Positions 4,490 through 31,332 of a DNA stretch of 32,762 bases are shown in pieces; positions within the stretch are counted from its first letter, which is position 1, and every line of letters begins with the position of its first letter. Made by a program: the position numbers and the translations under genes. The notes below the pieces were generated by a model, which was given only the letters and a program-made list of their open reading frames with translations, was not told the DNA's origin and ran no database searches. This stretch comes from Thermoproteota archaeon (GTDB taxonomy: Archaea > Asgardarchaeota > Jordiarchaeia > Jordiarchaeales > Freyrarchaeaceae). The stretch spans positions 1 to 32,762 of the forward strand of contig JAPDJY010000056.1 in NCBI GenBank assembly GCA_029258835.1, in the 5' to 3' direction.

Positions 4490-4615
4490 TGGCGGGCTGG
4501 GCGGGATTCGAACCCGCGACCGCCGGGTTAAAAGCTTCGCCCATGGTCCGGCGCTTTAGGCGAGCATTTAGATGCTCTACCTAGGTTCCCGGCTCCGCCT
4601 CTGAGCTACCAGCCC
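4490..4615 (-). tRNA. tRNA-Lys(UUU) with three non-canonical introns (approx. 15/16, 22/23, 30/31), CCA encoded
   Basis: Removing about 4600-4586, 4576-4556 and 4547-4536 gives GGGCTGGTAGCTCAGCCTAGGTAGAGCGCCGGGCTTTTAACCCGGCGGTCGCGGGTTCGAATCCCGCCCAGCCCGCCA, a complete cloverleaf. The first intron boundary is uncertain by 1 nt. Confidence 0.92.
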
Positions 4616-4646
4616 GTATCATTGAATGAATTATCATGGAAGGCTA

Positions 4647-4660
4647 CTTATATTTTTTGG
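4647..4660 (-). promoter_or_regulatory. Putative BRE/TATA for tRNA-Lys
   Basis: Minus strand reads CCAAAAAATATAAG about 30-45 nt upstream of the mature tRNA 5' end. Confidence 0.35.
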
Positions 4661-4801
4661 ATTGCAAATTGAAAGGAGAATGCAATGTAAATTCTGGATT
4701 TAAACGTAGCAGGGAAAAATGAAGGGGCATGTCAGGGTTAATCTTGCGATGTGCTGTGTTTAAATACGTTTAGGCAGCTTATCTGGTGGGTTTACTTGAA
4801 T

Positions 4802-6466
4802 ATGGATGACGCCTTAAAAAAGGAATGGTTTCGTTTTAACAGTAAATTAGTGGTAAATGAGGGGCAGTTTGGCCTCTTAGAGGTTTTCAAGAGAAATTTT
4901 GGAAGAGAACGAATGTTAGAGAAGAAAATATTAAAGGTAGACGAGTACGAAGTGGGACCGTATAAAGTTTGTATTTTCTCCTCCCCAAGAGAGCTCGAAT
5001 TTATATATGGCGTCAGTGATTCTTCAGTTGAACTGCTGAGTGAAAAATTGGTTGAACATCTCTCATCAACACTAGCAGATAATATTGCCTATAAAATTAA
5101 GGGGTTACATTTATTTGATAAGTTTCTTGCATTTACCGTTGATGAGGCAGTTAGACAGCTCCAAGGCTATTTGGAACTCTCCGAGGAAACGGCAAGAAAA
5201 GTGGCGTTAAGCTTAGCGTTCAGGTGCGCTGGTTTATCTGCAATTGCCCCTTTGCTGTTAGATGATAAAGTAGAGGAGTTTTACCTCGATGGAAAAGAGG
5301 AAAACGTATATTTAGACCATAGAGATTGGGGGCGATGCAAAACTAACATTATACTGTCTGATAAGGACATAGAAAGAGTTCTTACTAGAATACGGCTTGA
5401 GAGTGGGTTTCGACTTGATGAGGTACATCCTTCGCTGAAGGCTGAGGTGCTAACCAAATTCTTCAGGGTAAGAGTCTTAGTTGATATTCCACCCATAGCA
5501 GCAAAGGGAATTATGTTAACCTTCAGGAGAATGCGAAAAAAACCGTATACGATTCCTGAATTAATTTATAATGGCACGATATCGGTCGAAGCCGCGGCCT
5601 ATCTTCTTTTCTGCATTCTAAGAAGGTTTAACATTTGTGTTATAGGGGAGCCTAGGGCAGGTAAGACAACAATGATAAATGCCCTTGACTTAATGACGCC
5701 ATTAAACTGGAGGAAGGTATATGTTGAAGATGTTATTGAAAGTCTTTCCCTCCAAGAGCATGGGAGCCACCAAGCGAAGGTTAAAGTGAAGCCGCCGGAG
5801 GAAGAAGGGGAGAAAAGCAAGGCTAAAGAAATTACACAGCTACTCCATCGTTCTCCCGACTGGGTTTTCCTAGGAGAAATACGCACAAGGGAGGATAGCT
5901 GGGCGATGTTCCACGCCCTTACAGCAGGGTTGGTAGGGCTTCAGACATGCCACGGCAGATCCGTAGAGGACATCATTTTACGTTGGGTTATCCATCACGG
6001 AATACCATTAACTAACCTTAAGGCATTAGATATAATTGTAGAGATGAAAATGCTACCTAGCATTGCCGGAAGGCCTAAACGACGGGTTATGAAGATTGTC
6101 GAGGCAAGCGATGATCCACGGAAGTTTTTAACAGTCGAAAAGCTTTTCTCGGGGGAAGCGTTCATTGACGTTTTCGCATGGAGCCCGGAGAGAGATGAAT
6201 TATCCCTAGTTACAGATCTCCTTAAAACACCCTCTCTCAAAAAGATACGTAAGCGGTTTAATGCGAGTGAGGAAGAAGTACTGGAGGAAATGGATGTCTA
6301 CAAGTTTACTTTCAGCAAAATGGTTGAGAAAAAGATCTTCACAGTTAAGGATAATGTTTCAATACTAAACCACCTTTATTATTTATCCTCCAACGTGGAT
6401 GAAGGGGAGATGGATTGGAAGGATGTAAAAAGAGAGATAGAGAAAATTATAGAGAAGCTACATTAA
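4802..6466 (+). CDS. Type II/IV secretion (VirB11/TadA/FlaI-like) ATPase
   Basis: Walker A GEPRAGKTT, Asp-box-like VYVEDVIE, LHRSPDWVFLGEIR Walker B region and a TCHG His box. Start uncertain (ORF track 4751; ATG 4802 preferred). Confidence 0.88.
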   Translation: MDDALKKEWFRFNSKLVVNEGQFGLLEVFKRNFGRERMLEKKILKVDEYEVGPYKVCIFSSPRELEFIYGVSDSSVELLSEKLVEHLSSTLADNIAYKIKGLHLFDKFLAFTVDEAVRQLQGYLELSEETARKVALSLAFRCAGLSAIAPLLLDDKVEEFYLDGKEENVYLDHRDWGRCKTNIILSDKDIERVLTRIRLESGFRLDEVHPSLKAEVLTKFFRVRVLVDIPPIAAKGIMLTFRRMRKKPYTIPELIYNGTISVEAAAYLLFCILRRFNICVIGEPRAGKTTMINALDLMTPLNWRKVYVEDVIESLSLQEHGSHQAKVKVKPPEEEGEKSKAKEITQLLHRSPDWVFLGEIRTREDSWAMFHALTAGLVGLQTCHGRSVEDIILRWVIHHGIPLTNLKALDIIVEMKMLPSIAGRPKRRVMKIVEASDDPRKFLTVEKLFSGEAFIDVFAWSPERDELSLVTDLLKTPSLKKIRKRFNASEEEVLEEMDVYKFTFSKMVEKKIFTVKDNVSILNHLYYLSSNVDEGEMDWKDVKREIEKIIEKLH

Positions 6467-7272
6467 TTATCATTAATATCTGCAAGCATTTAGCGTCGTT
6501 GCTTCCGTTTAAGCTACCAACGACCAATTTAAAAACGAGGGAAAAGGAAATAAACATAATACTTAAAAAGCTTCAAGTTACTAGTGAAGAGCTGCATACT
6601 GGGAGTTTAATCTTTAGCATACTCGTTGGGATACTTATTTTTTTACCATCAACCATTTTGCTGAAAAACGTAGGCATCGCAATAACATTTACTGTTACCA
6701 CGAGTATAGCGGCCTATAATTTACCTTTCACGCTTCTTTTAAAAGAACTAGAGAGAAGGAAGAGAGTATATGGCTTATATGCAGACACGATCATTAAGAT
6801 GATCCTATTCGCAGAGCGCACCACAGGAAACATATATGATGCAATTATACCATTAACACGGCTCGATGAGGAAGAGGTAACGTTTACATTTAGAAAAATT
6901 GCGAGGAGGATTCTCTGTGGAGAAAACATGGAAAAAGCGATAATTCGTTTTGCACAGAGACAACCAACGAGAGCATTGAAATTGTATCTTCCTTTGGTGG
7001 TAAGAGCGAAAAGTGTTCATATGACATGGCGGCAGGTGGTTAATAAAGCTAGAATGGAAATTAGAGACGAATACCAAAGATATACGTTAGAGCTTGAAAA
7101 TAGGATGATGCTTGTAACAAGTATAACCTTTCTCTTACCAGTATTCTTAACTATGTGGTCATTACTATTTGGAGCAACAACGTTTATCTACACCATTTTA
7201 CCGATCCAATTATGTGGCGCTATTCTCTTAAGCAGATTCTTTCTCTATTCAAAAAACAACTTAATAGAATAA
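6415..7272 (+). CDS. TadB/TadC (type II secretion F-like) membrane platform protein
   Basis: Four hydrophobic segments, FRKIARRILCGENMEKAI T2SS-F-like segment, and overlap with the secretion ATPase gene. Confidence 0.7.
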   Translation: MEGCKKRDRENYREATLIIINICKHLASLLPFKLPTTNLKTREKEINIILKKLQVTSEELHTGSLIFSILVGILIFLPSTILLKNVGIAITFTVTTSIAAYNLPFTLLLKELERRKRVYGLYADTIIKMILFAERTTGNIYDAIIPLTRLDEEEVTFTFRKIARRILCGENMEKAIIRFAQRQPTRALKLYLPLVVRAKSVHMTWRQVVNKARMEIRDEYQRYTLELENRMMLVTSITFLLPVFLTMWSLLFGATTFIYTILPIQLCGAILLSRFFLYSKNNLIE

Positions 7273-7356
7273 GCTATTTTGAAAGAAATTTAAAAGAGAA
7301 AGTAAGTTGATTTTTATGAATAATGCAAGCTGACAGGTTGTGTAAGGGGAAGGTTA

Positions 7357-8715
7357 ATGAGCAAGTTTATGCCGCTAACTCAAGGTGAAATAGAGGAAAT
7401 GCTAAGGGAAATAAGTATTGAAACCATAGAGGAACTCTTCGACGACATACCGCCTGAATTGAAAATAAGCATGGTTGAAGCACCACGCGGAAGAACAGAG
7501 TACGAAGTTAAGAGACATGTAATGAAAATATTAAGTAAAAACAAGCCATATAGCACCATGCCTCTATTCTTAGGAGGGGGCGTGTGGCCACATTACGTTC
7601 CCTCAGTTGTTAAATATTTATCTGCATTACCGGAATTTGTGACGGGCTACACTCCTTACCAACCTGAAATTTCACAGGGAATATTACAGGCACTCTTTGA
7701 ATATCAAAGCATGATCTGCGAGCTGACGGGAATGGACGTTGCTAATGCGTCGATGTACGATTGGGCTTCATCGCTAGGTGAAGCAGCCTTGATGGCTTTA
7801 AGGGTAACAGGGAAAAAGGAAATAGTGATACCTCAAGCGATAAGCCCTGAAAGGGAGGCTGTGCTTAAAACGTACATTCATGGCAAAGCAACGATCAGAA
7901 AAGTAGCATACGACGTGGAAACAGGCATGATCGATTTGGAAGGATTACAGAATGTGATATCTAAGGAGACAGCAGGAGTGTATATTGAAAACCCAAACTA
8001 CTTTGGAGTAATAGAGTGCGAAGCCGAGGAGGCCGGAAAAATAGCCCATGAAGTCGATGCCATCTTCATAGTAGGAGTCGACCCTATCTCGCTGGGAGTT
8101 CTAACCCCTCCAGGAGACTACGGTGCAGACATAGTTATAGGAGAAGGACAACCCTTAGGCGTGGGACTAAACTTTGGAGGCCCTCTTCTAGGTATTTTCA
8201 CGTGTCGTAACGATAAGAAAATGATCAGGAACATGCCTGGACGGATAATAGGGATAACGGAGGATTATGAAGGCAACAGGTGCTATACTATAACTCTCCA
8301 AACGAGAGAGCAACATATTAGACGTGAAAAGGCAACCAGCAACATTTGTTCCAACGAGACGCTCTGCGCGGTGCAAGCAGCAATTTACATGGCATACATG
8401 GGACCCAAAGGAATAGAGCAGGTGGCTAAAGTGTGCATGGCAAATGCAAGATATTTAATGAAGAAAATAGACGCGATAAACGGTTTTAAGGCACCGATCT
8501 TCTCAGCCCCTCACTTTAAGGAGTTCACTGTGAGAACAGATTTCCCATCAACGGAAGTTCATAAAACGCTCATAAATAGCGGCGTACACGGAGGAAAAAT
8601 GTTAAAGGACGAGTTTCCAGAGCTAGGGGAAGTATTCCTTTTCTGCGTAACCGAAGTACATACAGAAGAAGACGTCGAGGCCTTAATTAAAGCATTATCA
8701 AGCATTTCAAGCTAG
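7357..8715 (+). CDS. gcvPA: Glycine dehydrogenase (decarboxylating) subunit 1
   Basis: FLGGG, GYTPYQPEISQGILQALFEYQ, ANASMYD, LQTREQHIRREKATSNICSN. Confidence 0.97.
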   Translation: MSKFMPLTQGEIEEMLREISIETIEELFDDIPPELKISMVEAPRGRTEYEVKRHVMKILSKNKPYSTMPLFLGGGVWPHYVPSVVKYLSALPEFVTGYTPYQPEISQGILQALFEYQSMICELTGMDVANASMYDWASSLGEAALMALRVTGKKEIVIPQAISPEREAVLKTYIHGKATIRKVAYDVETGMIDLEGLQNVISKETAGVYIENPNYFGVIECEAEEAGKIAHEVDAIFIVGVDPISLGVLTPPGDYGADIVIGEGQPLGVGLNFGGPLLGIFTCRNDKKMIRNMPGRIIGITEDYEGNRCYTITLQTREQHIRREKATSNICSNETLCAVQAAIYMAYMGPKGIEQVAKVCMANARYLMKKIDAINGFKAPIFSAPHFKEFTVRTDFPSTEVHKTLINSGVHGGKMLKDEFPELGEVFLFCVTEVHTEEDVEALIKALSSISS

Positions 8716-8718
8716 AAG

Positions 8719-10272
8719 GTGTTTAAAATGGCGGAGTTCAGGCAAGCCACGTGGAGGTATAAGGATAAGGTCTTAGAGCCAACGGTGTTCGAGCTTTCCA
8801 AGAAGGGAAGAGAGGGACATAAACCTCCAGAACCAATCAAAAAAGCACGTGAACTAGTAGAGGAAGTAATTGCCATGATACCTGAAAGAATGAGGAGGAA
8901 AAAGCCGCCTAACCTACCTGAACTATCAGAGGTTGAAGTTGTTAGACATTACACCCGACTAGCGCAAATGAACTACTGTGTAGACCTAGGATTTTACCCT
9001 TTAGGGTCCTGCACTATGAAATATAACCCAAAGATATGCGAAGAGATCGCTAGTGTTCCTGAGGTAGCCTACGTCCACCCCAACCAAGATGAGGAAACGG
9101 TTCAAGGAGCATTAGAGATACTTTATGAAACAGAAAGGATGCTCGCCGAGATTTTAGGCATGAGTAGGGTAACTCTTCAGCCAGCTGCTGGAGCTCAGGG
9201 GGAGCTTACTGGTATGGCAATGGCGAGAAGGTACTTTGAGGACCTCGAAGAGGACCGGAAAGACGTTTTAATACCAGATTCAGCTCACGGTACGAATCCT
9301 GCAAGTGCGAGAATGTGCGGTTTCAACGTGGTTACAATTCCTTCAAACGAAGAAGGATTGGTGGACTTAGATGCTTTAGAAGCTATAATCGGAGAGCAAG
9401 TAGCCTGCTTAATGCTGACAAACCCGAACACATTAGGGCTTTTCGAGAGGGACATATTAAAAATTTCTAGAATAGTCCATGAATATGGTGCCCTACTATA
9501 TTTAGACGGAGCCAATATGAACGCGTTGTTAGGTGTAGTTAAACCTGGAGATATGGGATTTGACATAGCCCACGTAAATCTTCATAAAACGTTTTCTACT
9601 CCTCATGGTGGTGGCGGTCCAGGAGCAGGACCCGTAGGGGTTAACGAACGGTTAGTTGAGTACCTTCCAGTACCAACGGTAGAGTACGACGAAGAAAAAC
9701 AGAAGTACTACCTTAACTATAACAGGCCGAAAACTATTGGGAAGGTCAGAAGCTTTTATGGAAATTTCACCGTGATCTTAAAAGCGTACATTTACTTGAA
9801 AATGATTGGAAGAGAGGGATTAAGACGGGTTGCTGAGGTAGCCGTACTCAATGCAAATTACCTTGCTAAGAGGATAGAGAAGATAAAGGGGTTCTCATTA
9901 CCATATAAAGGCTTGTATAAACACGAATTTGTAGTGAGTGCTGCACAGTTAAAAAAAGACGCCGGCGTCACCGCGCTGGACATTGCAAAAAGGATATTGG
10001 ACTATGGGATTCACCCGCCAACGATATACTTTCCTTTAATAGTACCTGAAGCCTTAATGATCGAGCCAACTGAAACAGAAAATCTTGACACATTAAGAAG
10101 GTTCGTTGAAGTCATGGAGAAAATTTCTGAGGAGGCGTATACTAAACCAGATGTGTTGAAACGCGCCCCACATAACACATCAGTAAGAAGGGTGGATGAA
10201 GCTAAAGCGGCAAAAGAGCAAATTCTAACATGGAAAATGTACCTTGAAGGGAAGGCAGCAATGGAGCATTAA
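8719..10272 (+). CDS. gcvPB: Glycine dehydrogenase (decarboxylating) subunit 2
   Basis: [33 protein letters not shown] and the PLP lysine motif [18 protein letters not shown]. Confidence 0.97.
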
Positions 10273-11363
10273 CGTTGAAGAGATTTCAATTCGGTGAGGA
10301 TTTCAGAGGGGTGGAGAATTCTGACTTTTCGAGGTTTACCTCTTATTTCAACGTATCCATAATGTTTAACGCTGTTCTTCTTTATATATCCCATGCCCAC
10401 TCCAACTCCTTTAAGAGGAGATAAAGTTCCACTAGTAACAAAGCCGGATTTCATTCCATCTGTGAGAATACTGTACCCTTTACGTGGTATTCCTCTTTCT
10501 TCCATAAGTAGACTTACCCGTAAAAACCGTATTCCACGTGTTTCAAGGGCTTTCCGCCCTATAAAGTTCTTGTCCAAGTCTAGGAAGCGCTCAAGGGAGG
10601 CCTCGATGGGGGTTACATCTTCATTAATATCTACTCCATATAAGGCAAGCCCTGCCTCCATCCTAAGGATATCTCTTGCAGCAAGCCCACAGGGAGTTAT
10701 TGACGACGATTCTCCTAGCTTAAGTATCAGTTCCCAGAGTGCTAATGCCTTTTCATCATCAAACTGTATTATTTCGAAGCCGTCCTCGCCGGTGTATCCG
10801 GTTCTAGAGAGTAAACAGGGCGACCCTAAAACGGTAACACTACAATGTTTAAACCTTCCCAAAGAAGAGAGACTTGTAAGACCTTTAATAACTTGTGGCG
10901 ATAAAGGTCCTTGAACTGCAAACATGACGGATTCATCGGATAAGTCGTCTACTTGAACATTAAAGTTAAACTCGTCAGTCTTTGCTGTAATCCAAGAGAA
11001 AGCCCTTTCCCTATTGCACGCGTTTACCACAAGTAGCAGTCCATTATCCATCTTATATACGATTATGTCGTCTATTATTCCTCCATGCTCATTAAGTAAA
11101 AAACCATATTTACAGTCTCCTTTCCGCATGGCTTCAACATCCCTAGTAAATAAGAGGTTCATTAAACGGGTTGCATCATCTCCTGAAACCATTATTCGCC
11201 CCATGTGGGACACATCAAAGAGACCCACGTTGCGCCTAACCGAGAGGGCCTCCACGGTTGGACCGAAACCCTTATATTCCAATGGCATTTCAAACCCAGC
11301 AAATTCAAACATAACAGCATGTTCGGCGTGCCATTCATGAAGAGGTAGTCTACGTGGCGTCAT
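10269..11363 (-). CDS. gcvT: Glycine cleavage system aminomethyltransferase T
   Basis: [51 protein letters not shown]. Confidence 0.96.
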
Positions 11364-11449
11364 AAACCAATCACCAGTTGATTATAAAAACAATCAAGGA
11401 GAAACTTGTATTTAAAGGGAAGTGAAGTCTTTTAATAATATTACTTTGC

Positions 11450-12439: not shown

Positions 12440-12479
12440 GAATAAGAAAGAAAACTCAAAGAAAAAGGAGGGTGAAATT

Positions 12480-13267
12480 ATGGCTTCACTTGAAGAAGGC
12501 AAGGTAGAAAAGGAAAAGACACCAAATTTTCTTGGATTACTTGTGTCGTATCTTCTAGCAGCATCTATGGTAGGAATTTGCCCCACTATAGTTTTAGTTT
12601 ATATTCTCCTAGACATAATAAAGTTACCGTTGTTTTTAGTGATCGCTTTAGCACCAGGATATTACGTTCTCACCAGATGGGTCTTTAACTTAACTCTGCT
12701 TTTCATAGCGAAACATTCGATACGTCCGGTTGAGGAAGGAGTACACGAAATGAGCATGAGCAATGTTAACGCCGTCAACTGGCTGCGCAATGGAATAGCA
12801 ACGTGTCTAGCCCTTCACTATATAGGGTTCGAACTAGTGTAGATGCGTTCTACACTAGGAATAAACCGTTCGGTATGCCCGGGCTTGGAAGCTTGGTTCT
12901 GAGGGCACTAGGGGCAAAAATGGGGCGAGGCGCTGTGGCATCGTTCGTTGCAGATCCATACCTAATAGAAATGGGAGACGGGTCCATAGCAGGGGGAGGT
13001 TCGATAATTTCAGGGCACGTATTTGATAGAGGAAAACTGAAGATAGGAAAAGTTAAGATAGGGAAAAACGTGGTTATAGGAGGCAACGCGGTAATATTTC
13101 CAGATGTTGAGATAGGTGATAACTCTGTCGTCGGAGCGCTGTCATTAGTAACCTCGGGAACAAGGATCCCGCCAAACCAGGTTTGGGGGGGAATACCGGC
13201 AAAACCGGTCATGACTGTAGATGGAAAGCCCTTAAGTAACATGAGAGAAAGCAAGGAAGAAACTTAA
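12480..13267 (+). CDS. Membrane-anchored left-handed beta-helix (hexapeptide) acyltransferase, interrupted by a predicted BHB intron; join(12480..12832,12865..13267), 251 aa
   Basis: The N-terminal ORF has two hydrophobic helices. The C-terminal ORF has LRALGAKMG, hexapeptide repeats (VKIGKNVVIGGNAVIFPDVEIGDNSVVG) and WGGIPA. The spliced length is 756 nt, in frame, with junction IGFE|PFGMPG. Confidence 0.85.
12833..12864 (+). other. 32-nt bulge-helix-bulge mRNA intron
   Basis: GG-GTTC-[GA|A]-CTAGTGTAGA-TGCGT-TCTACACTAG-GAAT-[AA|A]-CC: two 3-nt bulges, a 4-bp central helix and a perfect 10-bp inner helix. It contains the in-frame TAG. Confidence 0.85.
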
Positions 13268-13273
13268 AACATT

Positions 13274-14026
13274 TTAACCCATTAAACCGGGGAAATAGTA
13301 TTTTTCTCCATACGCATAGCTTTCCTCTTTTCTTGCAATCCCACTTTCCTCAAGTGCAGTGAGCGCGGCGTTAACACGTTCCTTCGACCAGCCAGTTTTT
13401 AACATAACATCCTCTGGAGTGACGTACCCTTTCTCGCTAGCAATGCTTAAAATCTCGTTTTGGTCGTCGCTCAGTTCAGCAGGGATAAAAACTACGATTT
13501 TAACACCCGATCTAAGTTGACGTAAACCAGGAATCACCTTCCTTTTCTCGAGCTCCTTAATCGCCCGCTCTACATCGTCTACTTTCACCTTGCCCCTTAA
13601 CCTTCCAGTATTTACTATAAGGTAAGCATCTCCGAGGGTCATTATACCTCCAGTTTCCTTGCGCTTAAGAAGAGCACGTTGATATAACAGTAATCCCAGC
13701 TTCTCGTAGTCTATTCCAACAGACAAACCTAGCATTTTCTTTTTCAATACTTCCTCCTCACTTATCACGTGGGTTATTACGGCACTTTCTGGTATACCAT
13801 ATTTCTCTCTGATTCTACTTATTTCACTTTGAAGTTTTGGGCTTGTAGCAATTATTACACCGTACTTCTCAGCGATTTCTTCAAGTTTACCTTTAATCTT
13901 TGTAGCCGCCTTAAGATCTTCCTCTAGTTCTTCAAGTTTTAGCTCGGCAGCTTTTCTTTCCATATGTTTTCTTCTTTCCATTCTCTCACGAATTTCACGG
14001 ATCCCCAAATCTGACAGCCCCAACAA
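13274..14026 (-). CDS. ESCRT-II Vps22/Vps36-like (EAP30 domain) protein
   Basis: N-terminal helical region, TGGIMTL..DDVERAIKELE first winged helix, ELSDDQNEIL..GYVT....TGWSKERVNAALTALEESG..YYFP second winged helix; adjacent to Vps28. Confidence 0.88.
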   Translation of the reverse strand: MLGLSDLGIREIRERMERRKHMERKAAELKLEELEEDLKAATKIKGKLEEIAEKYGVIIATSPKLQSEISRIREKYGIPESAVITHVISEEEVLKKKMLGLSVGIDYEKLGLLLYQRALLKRKETGGIMTLGDAYLIVNTGRLRGKVKVDDVERAIKELEKRKVIPGLRQLRSGVKIVVFIPAELSDDQNEILSIASEKGYVTPEDVMLKTGWSKERVNAALTALEESGIARKEESYAYGEKYYFPGLMG

Positions 14027-14029
14027 ATT

Positions 14030-14707
14030 TTAAAGCGATAAATCTTTAAGCCTTTGCTTAAAGTCGCGGTACCATCGATAAGCGTCGTACTCCATTTTCT
14101 TAGCGTCCTCTTGGTCTAAGACTAGGTCAGGAGGTAAGTCTTTCAAACGATTCCGCCAATCAACAACCTCTTTGTAGACCCAATAATTTTCACCTTCTAA
14201 ACCCGGAAATTTTTCAAGTTGGAGAGCTAATTCATCTAAGAGAGGGACAATAATGTCAATCCTAGCATAGTCGGTTAGTTGAAGCGAATCTATTAGCGTT
14301 ATTAAATTAGAAATCACATCGGCTGTTCTTGAGGCTAGCGCGGAAGGGGAAACCCTAAGAGCTTCCATAGGAATTTCGTCCTCAGACCTGACAGTAATAC
14401 CATCAGACGCGGCAAGCCGTAACCGTGAAGAAGCATAAGGATATTTTTCGAGAATACCATTCTCTTCTAAAAACTTTTTAAGATCGAAACCCTTACTCTC
14501 TAGTTTAGACCGTACGTTAATTATCTGCTTTATGTGCCATTCCAGCTGTTTCTGATATGTGATGGCGTCAATTAAACCGTTTTCATAGCTGCTAGTTAGC
14601 ATATCTAATGTTGCTATGCATGCATACAGTTCCCCCTCAAGGCTAAGCTGATTATTACCTCTCTGTCGTTCTTTAGCTTTCTCGGCGACTTTCATTTTTA
14701 GAACCAC
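14030..14707 (-). CDS. ESCRT-I Vps28-like protein
   Basis: ELYACIATLDMLTSSYENGLID..Y N-terminal core; LITLIDSLQL..IDIIVPLLDEL..VVDWRNRL..DAYRWY C-terminal helical bundle. Confidence 0.88.
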   Translation of the reverse strand: MVLKMKVAEKAKERQRGNNQLSLEGELYACIATLDMLTSSYENGLIDAITYQKQLEWHIKQIINVRSKLESKGFDLKKFLEENGILEKYPYASSRLRLAASDGITVRSEDEIPMEALRVSPSALASRTADVISNLITLIDSLQLTDYARIDIIVPLLDELALQLEKFPGLEGENYWVYKEVVDWRNRLKDLPPDLVLDQEDAKKMEYDAYRWYRDFKQRLKDLSL

Positions 14708-14710
14708 CCA

Positions 14711-15472
14711 CTAACTAGACTCAACCTCGCCTCGGAGGCTCTGAAGCTTCTTATTGACTATGTACCATTGCTTCTTGTATTTTCTGTATAGCCTAGTATA
14801 ATCTGTCGGATCTATTTCACCAGCTTCAAACTTTTCCTCGAGAGATCTTATGAGGTCTTCTATAGCGATCTTCTCGCTTTCTAATTCTAACTTTTCGTCG
14901 ACAGGAACTTTCATGCTAGTCTGAACGGTGCCGATGGCGACCTCCGCGTGGGTAGTTAACCTACTTCTGAGAGAGGCGATTGTTTCATCCTTCTCCTGAA
15001 GCTTACGTTGAAGTTCTTTTACTTGCCGTTCTAAAGCAGCAATCCTGTCAAGAAATTCGGATGGAGGCACCTCTGCACCTGACTCAGAGAGAGAAGGTAT
15101 AGGCGTCTTCTGAGGTTTCTTAAATAGAGGGCGGGGAGGAACCTTTGCGAAAACGCCCTTGAGCGTGTTTATTGCGTGATAAACGTGGTATTCCGGCTTC
15201 CACTGGTCTAGTATGCTTAAGTGGACCCTGCCTGTTTCCGGATCCACATTAGGATGATCTGTTGGCGAGATCATACGGATAATTGGAGGGTCAAATGGAA
15301 AAGTTGGAGGAATCTTAACTTCAACCTCGAATTTAAGTCCTCTATATTCACCTCTCCCTGCGATTTCACCTCTCCATATCGTTAGGTCGCCCTTGAACGG
15401 CGTGAATCCTTTAGCTCTCTCGTACATTAATTGGGCTTCCCGTGCAAGTATCAATTCAAAATCTTCAGTCAA
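14711..15472 (-). CDS. ESCRT-I Vps23/TSG101-like protein (UEV + coiled coil + steadiness box)
   Basis: E2 fold IPPTFPFDPP..HPNVDPETGRVHLSILDQW with His in place of the catalytic Cys, Pro-rich linker, coiled coil, and C-terminal AIEDLIRSLEEKFEAGEID..DY..LYRKY. Confidence 0.88.
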   Translation of the reverse strand: MTEDFELILAREAQLMYERAKGFTPFKGDLTIWRGEIAGRGEYRGLKFEVEVKIPPTFPFDPPIIRMISPTDHPNVDPETGRVHLSILDQWKPEYHVYHAINTLKGVFAKVPPRPLFKKPQKTPIPSLSESGAEVPPSEFLDRIAALERQVKELQRKLQEKDETIASLRSRLTTHAEVAIGTVQTSMKVPVDEKLELESEKIAIEDLIRSLEEKFEAGEIDPTDYTRLYRKYKKQWYIVNKKLQSLRGEVESS

Positions 15473-16318: not shown

Positions 16319-16338
16319 ATTTATGGTTGAAAGAAAAG

Positions 16339-21607: not shown

Positions 21608-21657
21608 GGGACATTTTCGTGAAAGCATCCTCTTGATAGGAGAAGCGGTCTAAACCT

Positions 21658-22263: not shown

Positions 22264-22455
22264 TGTTATTTAGTGCTACTAAAGGCGGATTTGTTTTTTA
22301 AGTAACCCATTAGAGACTCTTAACACCACCTCGCTTATTTATTTTTCTTATTGTTCCGTTTTTCCCTCACTCTCCACCTAAATCTAACAGCATGGGTTGG
22401 AAACGTAATGACTCACACTCCAGCTTTCTAGAAGAGAAAAATGTAAAAGCAAGAG

Positions 22456-23328: not shown

Positions 23329-23440
23329 CAAAAGGAGGAAAACAGAGGAGGCATGGTTCTTTCAAATCGATTTTTTAGAGGGAAAGGTTAAAATTTGATG
23401 TTGAACATAAAGGGAACCCCCTAAAGGAGGGTAAATAGAG

Positions 23441-24649: not shown

Positions 24650-24684
24650 AGCAAAATTTTCCTAAGCAAAGGAAGCAACGTAAA

Positions 24685-24858
24685 TTAGGAGCTTGGAAAT
24701 TCGTGGCCACACTTTGGGCAACGTATGAAGCCGCAGTTACCCAGAGCAGACGCGGCACAGCCGCTACATGCAAACGCTCGAGAGTAGCTAATGTCAAAAG
24801 TGAACCCGCATTGAGGACACGTAATGAGTCTATGTGAGGATCGTTTACGTCGATACAT
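24685..24858 (-). CDS. Small Cys-rich zinc-finger protein
   Basis: CPQC..YSRAFACSGC..NC..CPKCGHEF; ATG at 24858 follows GGAGG (ORF track starts at 24873). Confidence 0.7.
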   Translation of the reverse strand: MYRRKRSSHRLITCPQCGFTFDISYSRAFACSGCAASALGNCGFIRCPKCGHEFPSS

Positions 24859-24959
24859 TACCAGCGCCTCCAAGTTGGTTTTAGCAAAAAAGCGAAAATA
24901 AACATTTCGAAAACGGGGACGCTTCTAACTAAGTTTTCTGGAACTGTAAAAGTTGTTGC

Positions 24960-26087
24960 TTACTTTATTTTCTTAACGGCTTCTTGGTGGTAGCCTGTGA
25001 TAATTTTAAAATATCTACCTTTCATTTGATTGTCCAGTTCTGGATCGCCAGTGTCAACCCTTAAGGAGGGGAGGGTTGAAAGCTTGTAGGGCGTAGCCAC
25101 TATGATTATGTTTTCGAGACCAACTCTTTTTATGACCTCGCTACTTATTTGCTGGTTTCCTCTTCCAAAAATGTATCCTTGCCGCCCGATAGGAGAGATG
25201 ATTATCTTTGCAGGCCTTCCCGAGATCTTTCTGAGTATTTCCTCCTCGTCAACGTCCTTAGCTATTACGCGTCCATTCTCAATTAGATCTACGCCAAGAA
25301 CTGTTTTTTCCACGCCTAGAACGTCCGCCACAGCTTTACAAGTAGACCCAGGACCTAAAATGTAGATGACATCTGGCTCCAGAAGCTCCTTAACATACTT
25401 GGCGATAGCATACTGGTCGTCCCTTTCATCCTGCACGGTGGGACTCATCACCTTTGCACCTTGAAGAAGGGTGGGTTCATAAGGAGTCAACGCGTATCCT
25501 TTCAGCTTAACTAAAAGTTTACCCTGCCTGAAGGCGTCTTCGTCAACATCTAAGACCTCCGCCTCCCTTACAGATAGTTCCTCCCAAAGAAAACGTATTG
25601 CAAGATGTCCAGCCGACTCGGGAGACGTTGCAAAAGTAGCAGACCATATCTTAACGCCCGAGGGAATGCCTAGGATCGGCACCTCCTTATCGACGGCCTT
25701 TAGAAGATCTACCGTTGTTCCGTCTCCTCCAGCATAGAGGATAAGAGGCACGTCCATTTCAACCATGAGACGGGCAGCGTTAATAGTATCTTGGGGTGTA
25801 GTTGGCTCAGAAATATTTAACGAAAGAACATGCGTGTGAAAGCCGTGTTTTTCCGCTATAGCAGCCCCCATAATTCCAGGAGGGCACACCAAGCATATTG
25901 CAGACCCTACAGAGCTTAAAACATTTAATGCTCTCTCGGCACGCTCAAGGGAGACTAGTTTAGCACCCCTCTTAAGCGCAACTTTAACGAGTTCAGGATC
26001 ATCTGACCCTTTAAATCCGTATTTACCTCCTATTCCGGCAATGGGATTAACGAGGAATCCTAATAGTTTAAGGGACATGCATACCAC
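24960..26087 (-). CDS. ATP-NAD kinase / AcoX-like family protein
   Basis: LVNPIAGIGG...KGSD, AGGDGT, GIPSGVK, GQ-like GRQGYIFGRGNQQIS, VDTGD. Confidence 0.88.
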   Translation of the reverse strand: MVCMSLKLLGFLVNPIAGIGGKYGFKGSDDPELVKVALKRGAKLVSLERAERALNVLSSVGSAICLVCPPGIMGAAIAEKHGFHTHVLSLNISEPTTPQDTINAARLMVEMDVPLILYAGGDGTTVDLLKAVDKEVPILGIPSGVKIWSATFATSPESAGHLAIRFLWEELSVREAEVLDVDEDAFRQGKLLVKLKGYALTPYEPTLLQGAKVMSPTVQDERDDQYAIAKYVKELLEPDVIYILGPGSTCKAVADVLGVEKTVLGVDLIENGRVIAKDVDEEEILRKISGRPAKIIISPIGRQGYIFGRGNQQISSEVIKRVGLENIIIVATPYKLSTLPSLRVDTGDPELDNQMKGRYFKIITGYHQEAVKKIK

Positions 26088-26272
26088 CAGCTGGTGTTAA
26101 ATAAGAGAGCAAGTCGTCCTTAAAATATTACGTTTCAGAAAACAGGGGAAGGGCTTCCTAAAAAAGAGGAAAGAGCGAACAGTCAAATAATGGTCAAAAA
26201 CAATGTTTATTCTAAGGAAAAAGTTAAAAGTTCGAAGATCTCCCATTTTTAGGGAGAGAGGGGACGGTCACG

Positions 26273-27439
26273 TTGATAAACATCAGGGCAACCTTAGCGT
26301 TTCTCCGTGAACTAGCTAAAAAAGCTGGAAAAGAAATTAAGGCCAAGAAACACATTCTCAAGCAACCACATGATAAGATAGTTTTCCTGCTAGCTCATCG
26401 TCCAGACGGTGCCCTTAAGGGTAGAACCACCTTAGCCAAGGTTCTCTGTATCCTTGACAGTTTAGTGCTAAAGGAGAGAGACTATCTCGTCATAGACTAC
26501 TTTGGACCTGAAGATGCTAATTTCCCAAGGGCTTTAGGATTCGCAGCCAACGAGAAGCTTATACACATTCAAACATTAAATTCAAGCGAGCACGTCCTAT
26601 TAACATGGCGCGGGTATAACTACGTTAAGAGCAAAGGGATTCCCCGTGTAGAAAAGCTAGCAGAGCTTCTCCAAGAGCTGTTAGCCTTCTCTCAGAAAGC
26701 GGACAGGAACCTAGTTAATACGGCTTACATGTTTTTGTTTAACATAACGGAGGACGATTGGGGAAGAAGAAACATACCGTTTGAAGCGTTCATAAAAGGA
26801 GACACCATAGTGTATAATTCTCTAGCCTACAATTTATACAGGTACAAAAAAGGAAGCAGGTTTAGGAGGGTAGCAAATCCTGCAATGCGTATGAAAGAAT
26901 CATTAAAAGTAGAGTTGGATGACGTGACCCTTCCCCGTCTCTCCGGGCATGGTTTAGATGGAGACGACATGAAGGACGGGCAAAGTTACGCTTTCCCGTA
27001 CCTAGAAGCAGCTAACATGTTTCTAATGGTTACAAGTTGCCTTCCAACCTTAGAGGACGTAGCGGGCACAGCATTTTCAAGGACGAGCTATTACGAAAAA
27101 CTGGCGGGGGTTAAAGAGTTTAAGGTAGAAGAGAGAAAGGAGTATGCTGCAAGGAAGCAGGCAATATTGAAGACGTGTAAAGTCCACTTGGAAATACTAT
27201 GCGAGAGGGGGCTAATGGAGAAGAAAAAGGGAAAGAACATTAAAACATACCAACCAACTGCTAGAACGTACCTGGTTGATGGCGCCGCTTATAACCTAGC
27301 GAATAGGAGAAAAGCAATGTTCTACTGGAACAAAATGAAAAACTACGTTGAAGAGTATAGAAGGCGCTTGCTCCAAACCCACCGTCAAAATGCGGTTTTT
27401 AGTCAATTATTGATGGATGACTACGTTTATTTTAGGTGA
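26273..27439 (+). CDS. Hypothetical protein with Panacea/DUF4065-like winged-helix N-terminus
   Basis: LKGRTTLAKVLCIL..DYFGP..LLTWRG pattern; overlaps the downstream HD gene by 4 nt. The domain call is tentative. Confidence 0.55.
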   Translation: MINIRATLAFLRELAKKAGKEIKAKKHILKQPHDKIVFLLAHRPDGALKGRTTLAKVLCILDSLVLKERDYLVIDYFGPEDANFPRALGFAANEKLIHIQTLNSSEHVLLTWRGYNYVKSKGIPRVEKLAELLQELLAFSQKADRNLVNTAYMFLFNITEDDWGRRNIPFEAFIKGDTIVYNSLAYNLYRYKKGSRFRRVANPAMRMKESLKVELDDVTLPRLSGHGLDGDDMKDGQSYAFPYLEAANMFLMVTSCLPTLEDVAGTAFSRTSYYEKLAGVKEFKVEERKEYAARKQAILKTCKVHLEILCERGLMEKKKGKNIKTYQPTARTYLVDGAAYNLANRRKAMFYWNKMKNYVEEYRRRLLQTHRQNAVFSQLLMDDYVYFR

Positions 27440-29079
27440 ATTGTTTGCATCGAGAATCATGGAAAGTACGGGATGTTATCTGGGGGGACGTGTTCCTTAC
27501 AGCTGAGGACAGGAGAATACTTGACACCTTTGAAATGCAACGGTTAAGAGGGATAAAGCAGCTGGATTTTGCTTTCTTAGTTTACCCAGGTGCAGAGCAT
27601 ACCAGATTCCAGCATAGCTTAGGAGTAAGGGCATGCGTCGATCGGATAATAAGTGCTTCAAAGTTACCGGTAGATGAGGAGGAGTTAAGGCTTGTTAGAG
27701 TTGCTGCGTTGCTCCATGACGCAGCAACACCAGTCTTCAGTCATGTAGTATCCGACTTTTTCCGTCGGTTCTACCCTGACATAATCCCACCACACGAGAA
27801 GTTCGTGGGGGAGGTACTTGAAGGCGTATGCTATGAGAAATATATCGAAAGGCATCCTGAAGCAGAAGGAGAAGTGCCTTCACTAAAGGAGGCGTTGCAA
27901 GAGGAGGGGTACAGCAGGTCTGACAGAAGGAAAATTGTGAGAATAATAACAGGCGAGTTTAAGCCGAAATACATAGCGCAGCTTGTCAATGGAGCGCTGG
28001 ATGCAGACCGTCTCGACTATCTGAAAAGAGACGCGTACTATACAGGTGTCCCTCAAAGCTACGATGACAGAATATTCTCGTCGTTCAACGTGGGTGAGGG
28101 TGACGAGCTAACGCTGAAAGTTAAACATGACGCTATAGGAGCAGCGGTAAGCGTCCTTGAAAGCCGCTTCTGGATGATGCAGAAGGTTTACCTTCACCTA
28201 ACGGTTCTAGCGGCAAATTGCTTAGCCTTAGAGATGCTGGTGAAGGCGCTCGGAGATTACGACTTCTATGAGCTCTTCTTCTTAGATGACGCGGAAATTC
28301 TTAACCAGTTTATAAGGTCAGAGGTAGAGGAAGTAAGGGTGCTTGCTTGCAGGATGCGTTACCGTAAATTACCAAAAAAGGCGTATGTGGCACATTTAAA
28401 GGAACTACCCGAGAAAGTTTCCAAGGCGGCTTTAGGGATGATAAACTACCATGAACTCCAGGATGAAATAGCCAATGAAGCAAAGGCTATAAATCCACGC
28501 TTGGAGATCGATGAAAAGGACATTTTCTTGTATCTTCCAAGAGACTACTATAAGGGGGCTGAGGAGGTGAGAGTTGGCGACGCCACGTTAGAAGAGTATG
28601 ACCCTAGCATAGTTCAAACTTTGAAGGCGAGATATGAAAGCTTAATGCAGGTGTGCGTATACGTTTCAAATAATGGATATGTTAAAACCGTAAATGACGC
28701 TTGTGTGAGACTATTCGGGGTTAAAAGCGACTACGATCCGAACACGAGGAGGCCGCCCCTAAGGAAAAAGGGGAGTGTGGATGAGGAAATACTGCGTTTC
28801 TTAAAGAAAGTTAGGGATGGGGCAAATTATGCTTTAAAGGCTCTTAGAACACTCGTGGAAGTTGCAGAGGCTTGCAGCCGGGACAAGCTAAGCGAGATGA
28901 TGGGTGTTGAAGCCACCACGGTTTCAACGTATCTTCAACAAATTTACAGGCTTCAAAAAATGCTAAGGCAGCCCGTCCTATTGAGGATGAGGGAGGGAAG
29001 GAAAATATTGTGGGAGGTAAACCCTAATTTGAGGGAGGGATTGCGGAGGGGCCTCAGAATGGTTGAGAGGGGGGAATAG
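27436..29079 (+). CDS. HD-domain phosphohydrolase (SAMHD1/YdhJ-like) with C-terminal HTH
   Basis: QRLRGIKQL, YPGAEHTRFQHSLG, LLHD, DADRLDYLKRD, VYLH; C-terminal SRDKLSEMMGVEATTVSTYLQQI helix-turn-helix. Confidence 0.88.
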   Translation: MNCLHRESWKVRDVIWGDVFLTAEDRRILDTFEMQRLRGIKQLDFAFLVYPGAEHTRFQHSLGVRACVDRIISASKLPVDEEELRLVRVAALLHDAATPVFSHVVSDFFRRFYPDIIPPHEKFVGEVLEGVCYEKYIERHPEAEGEVPSLKEALQEEGYSRSDRRKIVRIITGEFKPKYIAQLVNGALDADRLDYLKRDAYYTGVPQSYDDRIFSSFNVGEGDELTLKVKHDAIGAAVSVLESRFWMMQKVYLHLTVLAANCLALEMLVKALGDYDFYELFFLDDAEILNQFIRSEVEEVRVLACRMRYRKLPKKAYVAHLKELPEKVSKAALGMINYHELQDEIANEAKAINPRLEIDEKDIFLYLPRDYYKGAEEVRVGDATLEEYDPSIVQTLKARYESLMQVCVYVSNNGYVKTVNDACVRLFGVKSDYDPNTRRPPLRKKGSVDEEILRFLKKVRDGANYALKALRTLVEVAEACSRDKLSEMMGVEATTVSTYLQQIYRLQKMLRQPVLLRMREGRKILWEVNPNLREGLRRGLRMVERGE

Positions 29080-30350
29080 TGCAAGAAAAGAGGATTCTGA
29101 TAAAGGATCCAATCTACGGGTACATTCAATGCAGTCCAGAGGAAAAAAAGATAATAGACACTGAAGCCGTGCAGAGGCTGCGTAGGATTAGGCAGCTTGC
29201 AGGTAGCGAGTTCGTTTACCCTGCTGGAGTACATACTAGATTTGAGCACTCACTCGGGGTTATGCATCTTGCAGGGTTATTAGCTAGTACCCTTATTGAG
29301 AAGGGAGTTTTGGAGGAGGAAGGGTTACGGCAGATAAGGATTGCCGCGTTACTCCATGATGTGGGACATGGCCCATTTAGTCACGTCTTTGAAGCCCTCC
29401 TAATAAGGCACCTAGGAAAAACGCATGAAGACATGACGGTGAAAGTGATCACCGAGAGCAGCCTGAAAGATGTTTTAAACGAGATAGGGTTAAACGTTAA
29501 GGACACGGCGCTTTTAGCTGTAGGTAAACTCGATAACAGGAAGAGAGAATTTTGGAGTCAAATAATTTCGAGTACTGTTGACTGCGATAAGTTAGACTAC
29601 ATCTTAAGGGATTCTTACCATACAGGCGGAGAGTTCGCGTCTATAGACGTCTTCCGACTAATTTACACTATCGACTTGTACGAGGGGAGCTTGGCTGTGG
29701 ATTTAGCCGCTCTCCCGACCCTTGAAGCGTTCCTTATAGCTAGGCTTGAACTCTTCAGAAGCATATATTTCCATAAAGCTTCGAGAGCAGCCCAGATTCT
29801 CTTAGAAAAAGCCCTTGAAGAAGCACATAAAGAAGTGGACATATTGAAATTAAGTGCTGAAGAATATCTGAAGCAAGACGACTACACCATGTGGACCCTA
29901 CTACTTCAATGCGAGAAATCAAGGGAATACATTGAAAGACTGCGGAGACGCGACCTTTTAAAAGTAGCTTATGAAAAAGCGTCCTTCACCAAGGACGGAG
30001 TTTTCCCGACGATCCTCACCAAGGATAGTGTTAGAAGGCAACTTGAAGAAGAGATCGCTGGAGAGGCAAGCGTCGATGTGGGGGAAGTGTACATAGATGT
30101 GCCAACCTTACCGTCAGTTCCCTACCACCACGCAATGAAAGACGAACCGATGGAGATACCTATTTTTCAAAGGCAAAAAAATGGAAGCAAGAAAATCCTA
30201 CGTCTTGGGGACGTCTCCAACATTCTCTCAGTCATGAGGGGGTTCCTAAACATAATCAGAGTGTATACAAACGTGAAAAATAGAGAGATAGTGGCGGAAG
30301 CCTCAAAGAAAATACTTGGAGAGCCGTTCTCCTCCAAAATATCTTACTAA
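29079..30350 (+). CDS. HD-domain phosphohydrolase (SAMHD1/YdhJ-like dNTPase family)
   Basis: IKDPIYG, QRLRRIRQL, HTRFEHSLG, LLHDVGHGPFSH, HE, DCDKLDYILRD, IYFH. Confidence 0.93.
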   Translation: MQEKRILIKDPIYGYIQCSPEEKKIIDTEAVQRLRRIRQLAGSEFVYPAGVHTRFEHSLGVMHLAGLLASTLIEKGVLEEEGLRQIRIAALLHDVGHGPFSHVFEALLIRHLGKTHEDMTVKVITESSLKDVLNEIGLNVKDTALLAVGKLDNRKREFWSQIISSTVDCDKLDYILRDSYHTGGEFASIDVFRLIYTIDLYEGSLAVDLAALPTLEAFLIARLELFRSIYFHKASRAAQILLEKALEEAHKEVDILKLSAEEYLKQDDYTMWTLLLQCEKSREYIERLRRRDLLKVAYEKASFTKDGVFPTILTKDSVRRQLEEEIAGEASVDVGEVYIDVPTLPSVPYHHAMKDEPMEIPIFQRQKNGSKKILRLGDVSNILSVMRGFLNIIRVYTNVKNREIVAEASKKILGEPFSSKISY

Positions 30351-30473
30351 GAGCGCAGATGCGCAAAACGGTTACTGAGCAAATTCATGGGGTTTAAACC
30401 AATCGGCACTCCATTAAATTTTTCAAGGAGAGAAGCGAAAAACATCTTACAACTCTAATGAGAGGGGAAGATA

Positions 30474-30971
30474 TTGAGCTCTGAAGTCAAAATAATAGTC
30501 GTTAATGTAGAGAAGGAAAAGGACGACCAGTTTATCTGCGGGATGGCGAACTTCACCGTTTACACCTGCGACAACATATTCAGGGAGCTATTAGCCGCAG
30601 TACCAAGAATAAAATGTGGAGTTGCGATGAACGAGGCAGCCCCACGCCTAGTAAGAGTTAACGGTAACGATGAAAGACTAAAGGAGCTAGCTGCGAAAAA
30701 CGCATTAGCAATAGGAGCATCCCACGCCTACGTAATACTTATGAAAGAAGCATTTCCAATCAATGTACTTAACGCTCTGAAGAACGTGCCAGGAATATGC
30801 AACGTAATAGTCGCCACAGCAAACCCAGTCCAACTGATAATCGCAGAAACACCTCTGGGAAGAGCAATCCTAGGAGCAGTCGACGGAAATAGTGTCACAA
30901 ACATAGAAAACGAAGAGCAAAGGAAGGAGAGAAGAGAGCTTGTAAGGAAGCTAGGCTATATTCTAGGCTAG
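30474..30971 (+). CDS. Adenosine-specific kinase family protein (PAE2307/DUF355-like)
   Basis: GVAMNEA..RLVRVNGND, FPINVLNALKNVP, ATANPVQLIIAET..GRAILGAVDG, R.ELVRKLGY. Confidence 0.85.
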   Translation: MSSEVKIIVVNVEKEKDDQFICGMANFTVYTCDNIFRELLAAVPRIKCGVAMNEAAPRLVRVNGNDERLKELAAKNALAIGASHAYVILMKEAFPINVLNALKNVPGICNVIVATANPVQLIIAETPLGRAILGAVDGNSVTNIENEEQRKERRELVRKLGYILG

Positions 30972-31150
30972 CCCCCAACAACCACCTATTCCCTAATTAT
31001 CCTCTCCAGCCTTAACCCTTACTCCCATTATTTAAACTCCTTTTTCTCATTTTCAGCATGTTGGAAGAACCTGGCGCGACGAAAAACAAGGAAAGTAGGA
31101 AGAATGCTAATACAGTAAGAGAGGAAAATCAACAGGAAAGCAGGGAGATG

Positions 31151-31332
31151 TGGCGCCCGGGGTGTGATTCCCGAGGAAGACCTTTTCGAACACACGCGGC
31201 GGGGAGTGCGGCGGGAAACGCCTCCGCCAGTGGGTTTCTTGCCCCCATGTTCCCACAAGATCTCGAGCTTCGGCGCCTTAGAGGCTCCACCGCCCTACCA
31301 TTACCCACTCCCCAGCTCTAGGCGACCCGGGC
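31151..31332 (-). tRNA. tRNA-Ser(CGA) with five introns, CCA encoded
   Basis: Removing 31317-31301, 31286-31269, 31261-31236, 31223-31207 and 31184-31168 yields the 87-nt GCCCGGGTCGCCTAGTGGTAGGGCGGTGGGCTCGAGACCCACTGGCGGCTCCCCGCCGCGTGTGTTCGAATCACACCCCGGGCGCCA, with all stems paired, a long variable arm and G73. Confidence 0.9.

Follow-up and report, generated by a model that had tools for sequence, protein, structure and literature searches.

Probable bulge-helix-bulge introns in two tRNA genes and an acyltransferase gene of a Jordarchaeales genome, with further predicted introns in protein-coding genes

Intron-rich transfer RNA (tRNA) genes have been described in the Asgard archaea Atabeyarchaeia and Freyarchaeia (Valentin-Alvarado et al. 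2024, PMC11291895), and a recent preprint reports for the Jordiarchaeaceae and Freyrarchaeaceae up to five introns per tRNA gene, a mean of 2.0-2.4 and a splicing endonuclease (EndA) of (alpha-beta)2-like type, without identifying a route by which the introns arrived (Goswami et al. 2026, 10.64898/2026.10.13.758758). The published Asgard pattern is that most tRNA genes are interrupted, that the sites are non-canonical and that many D-arm introns are missed by standard tools; introns in messenger RNAs (mRNAs) are mentioned in neither source (PMC11291895; 10.64898/2026.10.13.758758). Multi-intron tRNAs are also described for the Thermoproteales (Sugahara 2008, in the account given by PMC11291895). 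For archaeal mRNAs, the searchable literature yielded only two cases, the bulge-helix-bulge (BHB) intron in the coding sequence of the crenarchaeal cbf5 pre-mRNA (Watanabe 2002; Yoshinari 2006; Yokobori 2009, PMC2738675) and a BHB intron in the 5' untranslated region (UTR) of Haloferax volcanii HVO_1309 (PMC7714728), and no paper on BHB introns in Asgard mRNAs was found in it. Here we analyze a stretch of 32,762 nucleotides (nt) of DNA from an uncultured Asgard archaeon (contig JAPDJY010000056.1 of assembly GCA_029258835.1), hereafter the window. We put at about 85% the probability that three genes in the window are interrupted by nine archaeal introns of the tRNA (BHB) type, three in a tRNA-Lys(UUU) gene, five in a tRNA-Ser(CGA) gene and one in a protein-coding gene, and we hold it equally probable that the window exemplifies a condition of the whole genome in Jordarchaeales, in which nearly all tRNA genes and at least six protein genes are interrupted.

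The window belongs to a 2.72-Mb metagenome bin of 91 contigs with an estimated contamination of 6% (genome G000, whose contigs are given C-numbers), and it was compared with two relatives from another genus of the same family (G001 and G002). Introns were recognized by a rule taken from canonical pre-tRNAs, in which the four intron bases just before the final two form pairs with four bases of the exon, and each 3-nt bulge is cut (marked ↓ below) behind its second base. For tRNA genes we additionally used a solver of our own, which reads the cloverleaf from an anchored acceptor and permits introns before any base; its control was a set of 150 dinucleotide shuffles of the interior of each window tRNA gene.

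On the raw window neither ARAGORN nor Rfam (at the gathering threshold and at E<=10) recognizes a tRNA, since the interruptions of the genes are too extensive; when ARAGORN was allowed one long intron it returned the wrong calls Arg(gcg) and Pyl(cta). On the minus strand, the acceptor stems and T-arms are nevertheless intact at both ends of the segment 4490-31332 and the CCA is encoded, with excess sequence in between. Removal of three inserts from the first gene (4490-4615) gives a tRNA-Lys(ttt) of 78 nt with CCA in ARAGORN, and removal of five from the second (31151-31332) gives a tRNA-Ser(cga) of 87 nt with CCA. Both are perfect cloverleafs with perfect stems and U33, and tRNA-Ser has the expected long variable arm. 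For both genes the best parse of the solver contains the same introns as the manual removal, with scores of 16.4 for tRNA-Lys and 24.0 for tRNA-Ser against shuffle maxima of 6.2 and 5.6, and orthologues in G001 and G002 support both assignments. We note that the 3' CCA is encoded in the window (4490-4492 and 31151-31153) and likewise at about 30 tRNA loci of the genome, and that in the sister genus CTA or TAA takes its place in the orthologues of tRNA-Lys.

In tRNA-Lys, intron 1 (16 nt, 4585-4600, minus strand as for all tRNA introns of the window) lies at 15/16 in the D-loop and forms a relaxed BHB with three of four central pairs. Intron 2 (21 nt, 4556-4576) lies at 22/23 in the 3' strand of the D-stem and has a central helix AGGU/GCCU of four pairs, and intron 3 (12 nt, 4536-4547), at 30/31 in the anticodon stem, is placed by the solver and by ARAGORN on the spliced form. 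In tRNA-Ser, strict BHBs with four central pairs enclose intron 1 (17 nt, 31301-31317, at 15/16; outer helix 3, inner 3), intron 2 (18 nt, 31269-31286, at 30/31; outer 3, inner 4) and intron 5 (17 nt, 31168-31184, at 59/60 in the T-loop; outer 5, inner 3), so that the flanking helices of the strict tRNA motifs span 3-5 base pairs (bp) on the outer and 3-4 bp on the inner side. Intron 3 (26 nt, 31236-31261) occupies the canonical 37/38 site between the anticodon stem strands GUGGG/CCCAC, and intron 4 (17 nt, 31207-31223), placed by ARAGORN on the spliced form and by the solver, lies in the variable arm. In the test of bulges and central helix, the protein-gene intron and tRNA-Ser introns 1, 2 and 5 are exact, tRNA-Lys intron 2 has four central pairs, and the others have three of four and are relaxed. 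Boundaries are set by the strict BHB alone in these four exact cases.

Comparison fixed one of the remaining boundaries and favored one choice for another. The D-loop AGCTAGGTA is left after removal of intron 1 in tRNA-Lys, in both orthologues (whose introns have 17 nt) and in the paralogous tRNA-Lys(CUU), which fixes the 3' boundary of this intron at 16 nt with the ending AC. For tRNA-Ser intron 4, a 29-nt alternative makes a strict BHB and deletes the long variable arm; we rejected it because the anticodon is that of Ser and three orthologues keep the variable-arm stem. These orthologues leave a GGCGG/CCGCC stem, and their introns all end in GCA. The preliminary description of this DNA, made from the sequence alone, had proposed nine introns of 12-32 nt in a segment (4490-31332) whose limits are exactly the outer ends of the two tRNA genes, with sites at 15/16 and 30/31 shared by both tRNAs and with an A after a purine at each 5' cut, and in all of this it agrees with our parses, the 5' rule holding for nine of nine. 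Its count of 3' ends needs a small revision: seven of the nine, rather than eight, end in AA, since tRNA-Lys intron 1, the one whose boundary had been marked as uncertain, ends in AC and the variable-arm intron in CA. The full signature, purine↓A...AA↓, is present in all four strict-BHB introns, as compared with 1.3% (1176/92731) of the strict BHB-shaped candidates in the genome. None of the inserts resembles a self-splicing intron: at 12-32 nt they are short, and Rfam finds no group I or group II ribozyme core at the gathering threshold or at E<=10.

The tRNA genes of the window are typical of their genome. The Rfam model RF00005 finds only 12 tRNAs in the whole genome, most of them over-long. 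A search for tRNA anchors (acceptor pairing, T-arm and CCA) gave 95 matches, against 15 in the reversed sequence, that collapse to about 30 tRNA loci. Together with four extra Rfam loci, 32 genes were solved, and 30 of these contain introns (76 introns, a mean of 2.4 per gene, in agreement with the published 2.0-2.4), so that the finding of largely intron-poor tRNAs, named beforehand as what would speak against a genome-wide pattern, did not materialize. Only two genes are intron-free, the maximum of five belongs to the window tRNA-Ser, and the introns have a median length of 19 nt. They lie most often at 59/60, with ten cases, and next at 30/31 (eight), 37/38 (seven) and 15/16 (six). The search also turned up a 122-nt tRNA-like locus (C7:54315-54436, minus strand) whose 5' part resembles a duplicated acceptor and D-arm segment; its solver parse is poor (9.2), which may point to an unusual structure or to a longer intron. 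The signal recognition particle RNA gene was also located, with 350 nt against the 317 positions of the model.

All eight tRNA introns of the window recur at identical positions in G001 and G002, where the exons differ by few bases. Their lengths in the three genomes are 16/17/17, 21/22/23 and 12/16/19 nt for tRNA-Lys and 17/15/21, 18/20/23, 26/28/32, 17/16/16 and 17/at least 28/31 nt for tRNA-Ser. The intron sequences diverge while the hairpins persist, and the inner hairpin of tRNA-Lys intron 2 is preserved through compensatory changes in both relatives.

These comparisons bear on how the introns arose. The preliminary description took the shared intron ends as a sign of active gain, for example by reverse splicing through EndA and RtcB, that has reached protein-coding genes. 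Spelled out, this speculative process would also include reverse transcription and would spread one type of intron from tRNAs to mRNAs, with the signature as its footprint. In favor of such a process are the recurrence of the same four sites across different tRNAs, the occurrence of introns in unrelated protein genes (see below) and the many independent gains reconstructed for these families in the preprint (10.64898/2026.10.13.758758). All nine introns of the window, that of the protein gene included, are however common to another genus of the family and are thus old, predating the split of the genera, with none of them recent, and the recurrent sites can equally reflect where a cloverleaf permits a BHB. 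In addition, an all-against-all comparison of 79 introns revealed no similarity above that of shuffles, with the exception of a single pair, which occupies a common site in two tRNAs that are paralogues. Because the introns share no sequence, the letters purine↓A...AA↓ are better read as the composition of the bulges than as the mark of one spreading element, and we infer that they reflect a preference of substrate or selection, not common descent. We consider active gain unlikely as an account of these introns, and a reading of the signature as evidence of shared origin found no support.

The ninth intron lies on the plus strand in a gene for a membrane-anchored acyltransferase with hexapeptide repeats (a left-handed beta-helix). 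Two open reading frames (ORFs), 12480-12842 and 12803-13267, overlap here in different frames, with a perfect 10-bp hairpin between them. Exon 1 (12480-12832; residues 1-118 match in this frame by tblastn) encodes the N-terminal hydrophobic part, and its last two bases start a Glu codon. The 32-nt intron (12833-12864) is framed by an outer helix of 2 bp, a central helix GUUC/GAAU, bulges GA↓A and AA↓A and an inner helix of 10 bp. Exon 2 (12865-13267) supplies the final base of the Glu codon, continues with PFGMPG and contains the hexapeptide-repeat domain (Pfam Hexapep) up to the stop. Removal of the intron eliminates an in-frame TAG at 12840-12842 and fuses the two frames into a protein of 251 amino acids (aa), whose predicted junction-spanning stretch contains HYIGFEPFGMPG, with the junction residues also given as HYIGFEPFGMPGLG.

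The spliced protein behaves as a single conserved unit. On Freyarchaeia-family loci it is matched in tblastn by one unbroken segment with 52-56% identity, and in G000, G002 and G001 the match is split over two frames. Its alignment to 11 uninterrupted homologues, among them three paralogues from this genome, needs no gap at the junction (...LALHYIGF-E-PFGMPG...). An intact homologue covers positions 11-215 of NCBIfam TIGR02353 (the terminal membrane plus beta-helix domain of Pls/PosA synthetases) in one stretch, and exon 2 by itself covers 105-215; exon 1 alone has no family match in Pfam or NCBIfam. The orthologous inserts interrupt the same codon (GA↓A or GA↓G) and have 32, 31 and 32 nt in G000, G002 and G001. 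In the three-sequence alignment 95.8% of the cells of the BHB are paired, and four of its pairs have changed on both sides, against at most one when the partner strand is slid.

Several side observations concern this gene. The in-frame TAG is present in all three orthologous introns, six codons after the 5' cut (GUG UAG or GCG UAG), so that an unspliced mRNA would give a 120-aa membrane fragment. The family that combines transmembrane segments with the hexapeptide-repeat acyltransferase domain is expanded, with nine matches in this genome and 7-10 in relatives among the Jordarchaeales and Freyarchaeia, and the intron is found in one orthologue group only. The immediate 3' neighbor, on the opposite strand, is an ESCRT-I/II-like trio of genes (EAP30/Vps36-like, Vps28-like and UEV plus Vps23-core-like; 13274-15472, minus strand).

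One could suppose that the protein locus is a decaying pseudogene, or that it encodes two proteins, one a membrane protein of 120 aa and the other a transferase of 130 aa that would begin with the ATG at 12875, and that the hairpin is an incidental terminator or regulatory stem. The position of that ATG, five codons into exon 2, the TAG in all three inserts and the lack of a family match for exon 1 by itself would suit this view. Both halves, however, are under purifying selection in three genomes of two genera. The P-F-G codons directly after the insert vary among these genomes only at synonymous third positions, as do all codons from the insert to the ATG, which indicates that they are translated although exon 2 has its first ATG only after them. 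Moreover, the frame offsets between the exons (2, 1 and 2 in G000, G002 and G001) match intron length modulo 3, so that the reading frame follows the changes in intron length. All 11 homologues are single uninterrupted proteins in which the junction falls inside a conserved block, the geometry is exactly that of a BHB with compensatory changes, and no T-run that would suit a terminator follows the hairpin. We therefore regard a pseudogene or gene pair as very unlikely.

A translational solution would leave the RNA intact and have the ribosome shift frame in a programmed manner or bypass the 32 nt; the 10-bp hairpin, which is stable and begins with a stop codon, does resemble the take-off and landing elements of bypassing. 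The landing codon is, however, not matched to the take-off codon, and the split codon GA↓A demands exact joining. The spacing of bulges and helix is precisely that of EndA substrates, and the tRNA genes of the window, which are not translated at all, show the same geometry. We find this solution scarcely credible. That the inserts or chimeric joins arose in assembly or sequencing, a concern raised by the 91 contigs and the 6% contamination of the bin, can be practically dismissed, because the region and its insert reappear at about 99% identity in DNA contigs of independent metagenome runs (X1, X2 and, with a short contig, X15) and the separately assembled sister genomes have inserts at the same nine sites.

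Splicing of protein genes appears to extend beyond the window, and in the sequences at least six protein genes of this genome, the acyltransferase gene included, carry predicted BHB introns. In the gene for EF-1alpha the first 18 profile positions are out of frame and a BHB sits in the P-loop; removal of the 43-nt intron (C27:28832-28874, minus strand; inner helix 10 bp) restores GHVDHGK↓STLMGHLL. The phosphoenolpyruvate synthase gene ppsA lies in two frames, which removal of 19 nt (C1:87579-87597, plus strand; outer helix 7, inner 4) joins as RSSASAED↓LPGASFAGQQ. A 25-nt intron in PCMT (C8:8772-8796, plus strand) separates exons that correspond to Pfam positions 2-59 and 61-208. In a radical-SAM gene (C1:136638-136664, minus strand) an intron of 27 nt lies just before the CxxxCxxC motif and its removal restores conserved motifs, and removal of a 29-nt intron from a leuC-like gene (C6:47345-47373, plus strand) restores a typical N-terminus. 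These apparent frameshifts and stops at canonical BHBs bear out the proposal that introns have reached protein-coding genes; the further expectation of routine mRNA splicing is less well supported, "routine" being relative when six protein genes among those of the genome were verified.

We also scanned the whole genome for BHB shapes and compared the counts with those for decoy motifs. By structure alone there are 92,731 strict BHB shapes, which is not above decoys with 2-, 4- or 5-nt bulges. Requiring that long ORFs be joined leaves 2112 real matches against 1925-1962 for decoys, since operon junctions mimic split genes in both, and adding the bulge signature leaves 22 against 16-20. Among these last candidates the acyltransferase intron has the top BHB helix score. 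The strictest filter (inner helix >=6, at most two G-U pairs, at most 50 nt) gave a modest excess of 31 over 18-23; its list is headed by the EF-1alpha intron and the window intron, which tie for the longest inner helix, and it also yielded the PCMT, radical-SAM and leuC-like introns. The decoy comparison is a low-power test and does not count as evidence against mRNA introns. One candidate (C26:8133-8181) proved a false positive, as its supposed intron encodes conserved sequence like that of acetolactate synthase. Another source of false BHB matches was a set of repeats containing GAGTCCCCAGACATGGGGATTGAAAG, whose units resemble CRISPR repeats (C2 near 1865-1940, 7768-7842 and 161698-161748; C16 near 51238-51313).

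Some of the results weigh against BHB splicing. The sole metatranscriptome run provides one contig, 13003-13215, which covers exon 2 only and leaves the junction of the acyltransferase mRNA unbridged. The minimum-energy fold of the same region is stable (z -3.2) and keeps the 10-bp inner helix, but the 4-bp central helix is absent from it and the two exons pair with each other, and the minimum-energy fold of the tRNA-Ser precursor is no stabler than its shuffles (z 0.62); thermodynamic folding is, however, a poor detector of BHBs. The strict BHB test is passed by only four of the eight tRNA introns, the rest having three of four central pairs or short flanking helices. The scoring of the census solver rewards the bulge signature, which biases the signature frequencies in the census. 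Finally, because the structure-only scans show no excess of BHBs, the genome-wide claim for mRNAs rests on the individually verified genes and not on a statistic.

The genome encodes enzymes that would suit such splicing, namely two proteins of the EndA family (PF01974) and one RtcB. The 190-aa EndA is closest to the catalytic subunit of the A. pernix heterotetramer (E 4e-46) and aligns over its full length with 3p1z_B. It keeps the catalytic motifs of the Tyr/His/Lys triad and the Crenarchaea-specific loop with the equivalent of Lys44, a loop that confers a broad substrate range (PMC3241643); conserved in the alignment are IRKPK (aligned to VEKPR), AVY, IDHAP and SVRKKF. In the 308-aa paralogue (C6:39157-40083) both EndA domains fall within the C-terminal 170 aa, and in one pairwise alignment an Ala stands opposite the catalytic His; it would fit the role of a predicted structural partner of EndA. 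Its 135-aa N-terminal extension has no family match and is unlike known beta subunits. The subunit architecture, whose classification had been proposed as a check, thus appears to be of the crenarchaeal, broad-specificity (alpha-beta)2-like type, with a catalytic alpha subunit and a putative non-catalytic paralogue.

On this basis we propose that in the primary transcript each intron would pair locally with the exon just upstream, forming two 3-nt bulges with a 4-bp helix between them, that EndA would cut after the second base of each bulge, and that RtcB would join the exon ends. In the acyltransferase transcript this would remove the in-frame TAG and the +2 frame offset and would fuse the membrane N-terminus to the hexapeptide-repeat acyltransferase domain. 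We infer the cutting and joining themselves from sequences, structures, conservation and the presence of the enzyme genes.

A bolder combination of these elements is that the tRNA-splicing enzymes form a general and obligatory mRNA-splicing system in Jordarchaeales, on which EF-1alpha and other essential genes would depend, that introns still enter coding sequences through reversal of EndA and RtcB, and that the stop codon in the intron serves as a checkpoint between truncated and full-length protein. We think this whole unlikely. If it were true, intron invasion and control of the XBP1/HAC1 type would both have a prokaryotic analogue, and this among the closest relatives of eukaryotes.

The remainder of the window has the gene content of an Asgard archaeon, as judged by Pfam on long ORFs, and encodes, besides the ESCRT-like trio, an unsplit RNA polymerase B, a family-B DNA polymerase, an ARPC4-like protein and an IFT52-GIFT protein. 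An ORF for a T2SSE-type ATPase (4751-6466, plus strand) shares 52 nt, in another frame, with an ORF of 285 aa without family match (6415-7272, plus strand). We saw no good BHB at this overlap, and it is therefore probably an ordinary gene pair in which the second gene starts later.

For annotation, the consequence is that this genome defeats gene callers and tRNA finders: no tRNA was called in the window and only 12 were in 2.7 Mb, and frameshifts seem to disrupt genes such as those for EF-1alpha, ppsA and PCMT. Unless BHB introns are removed first, "missing" and "pseudo" genes will thus be miscounted when the metabolism and phylogenomics of these Asgard archaea are reconstructed. For evolution, a lineage next to the eukaryotic stem would have several ordinary and essential protein genes that need predicted splicing by EndA and RtcB. 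Two questions are thereby made testable, namely how coding sequences may be colonized by introns without a spliceosome, and whether there is an archaeal precedent for the eukaryotic use of TSEN and RtcB on mRNAs.

Among known systems, the most distant parallel is HAC1/XBP1, a short non-spliceosomal mRNA intron in which Ire1 cuts at two stem-loop sites and a tRNA ligase (RtcB in animals) rejoins the ends, changing the reading frame. The likeness is one of mode of working; endonuclease and motif are different and the splicing is regulated by stress, so that the acyltransferase intron is not a member of that system. In the Thermoproteales, intron copies are reportedly similar in sequence, which suggests transposition, whereas no such similarity was found in the present genome. 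Otherwise both have tRNAs in which BHB introns occupy many non-canonical positions, and an EndA with the Crenarchaea-specific loop, of (alpha-beta)2 type in the Thermoproteales and apparently of similar type here. HVO_1309 of Haloferax likewise provides an mRNA substrate of the archaeal splicing endonuclease, but there the intron lies in an untranslated leader, the reading frame is independent of it, and introns are few in the host, whose EndA is an alpha'2 homodimer. The multi-intron tRNAs of Asgard archaea come from the same lineage as the window, whose tRNA genes are an instance of the published pattern and do not differ from it; this part of our results is already published, and tRNA-Ser is a well-resolved five-intron example that adds no new principle. 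The mRNA part is absent from the searchable literature, and its nearest counterpart is cbf5. Both cases involve a short BHB intron in a coding sequence, hosts with a hetero-oligomeric, broad-specificity EndA (predicted in the present genome), presumed cutting by EndA and joining by a tRNA ligase, and a patchy distribution. Splicing of cbf5 was shown experimentally, whereas here it is deduced from sequence; on the other hand, the present case concerns the Asgard phylum and other genes, and it extends from a single interrupted protein gene to at least six, EF-1alpha among them.

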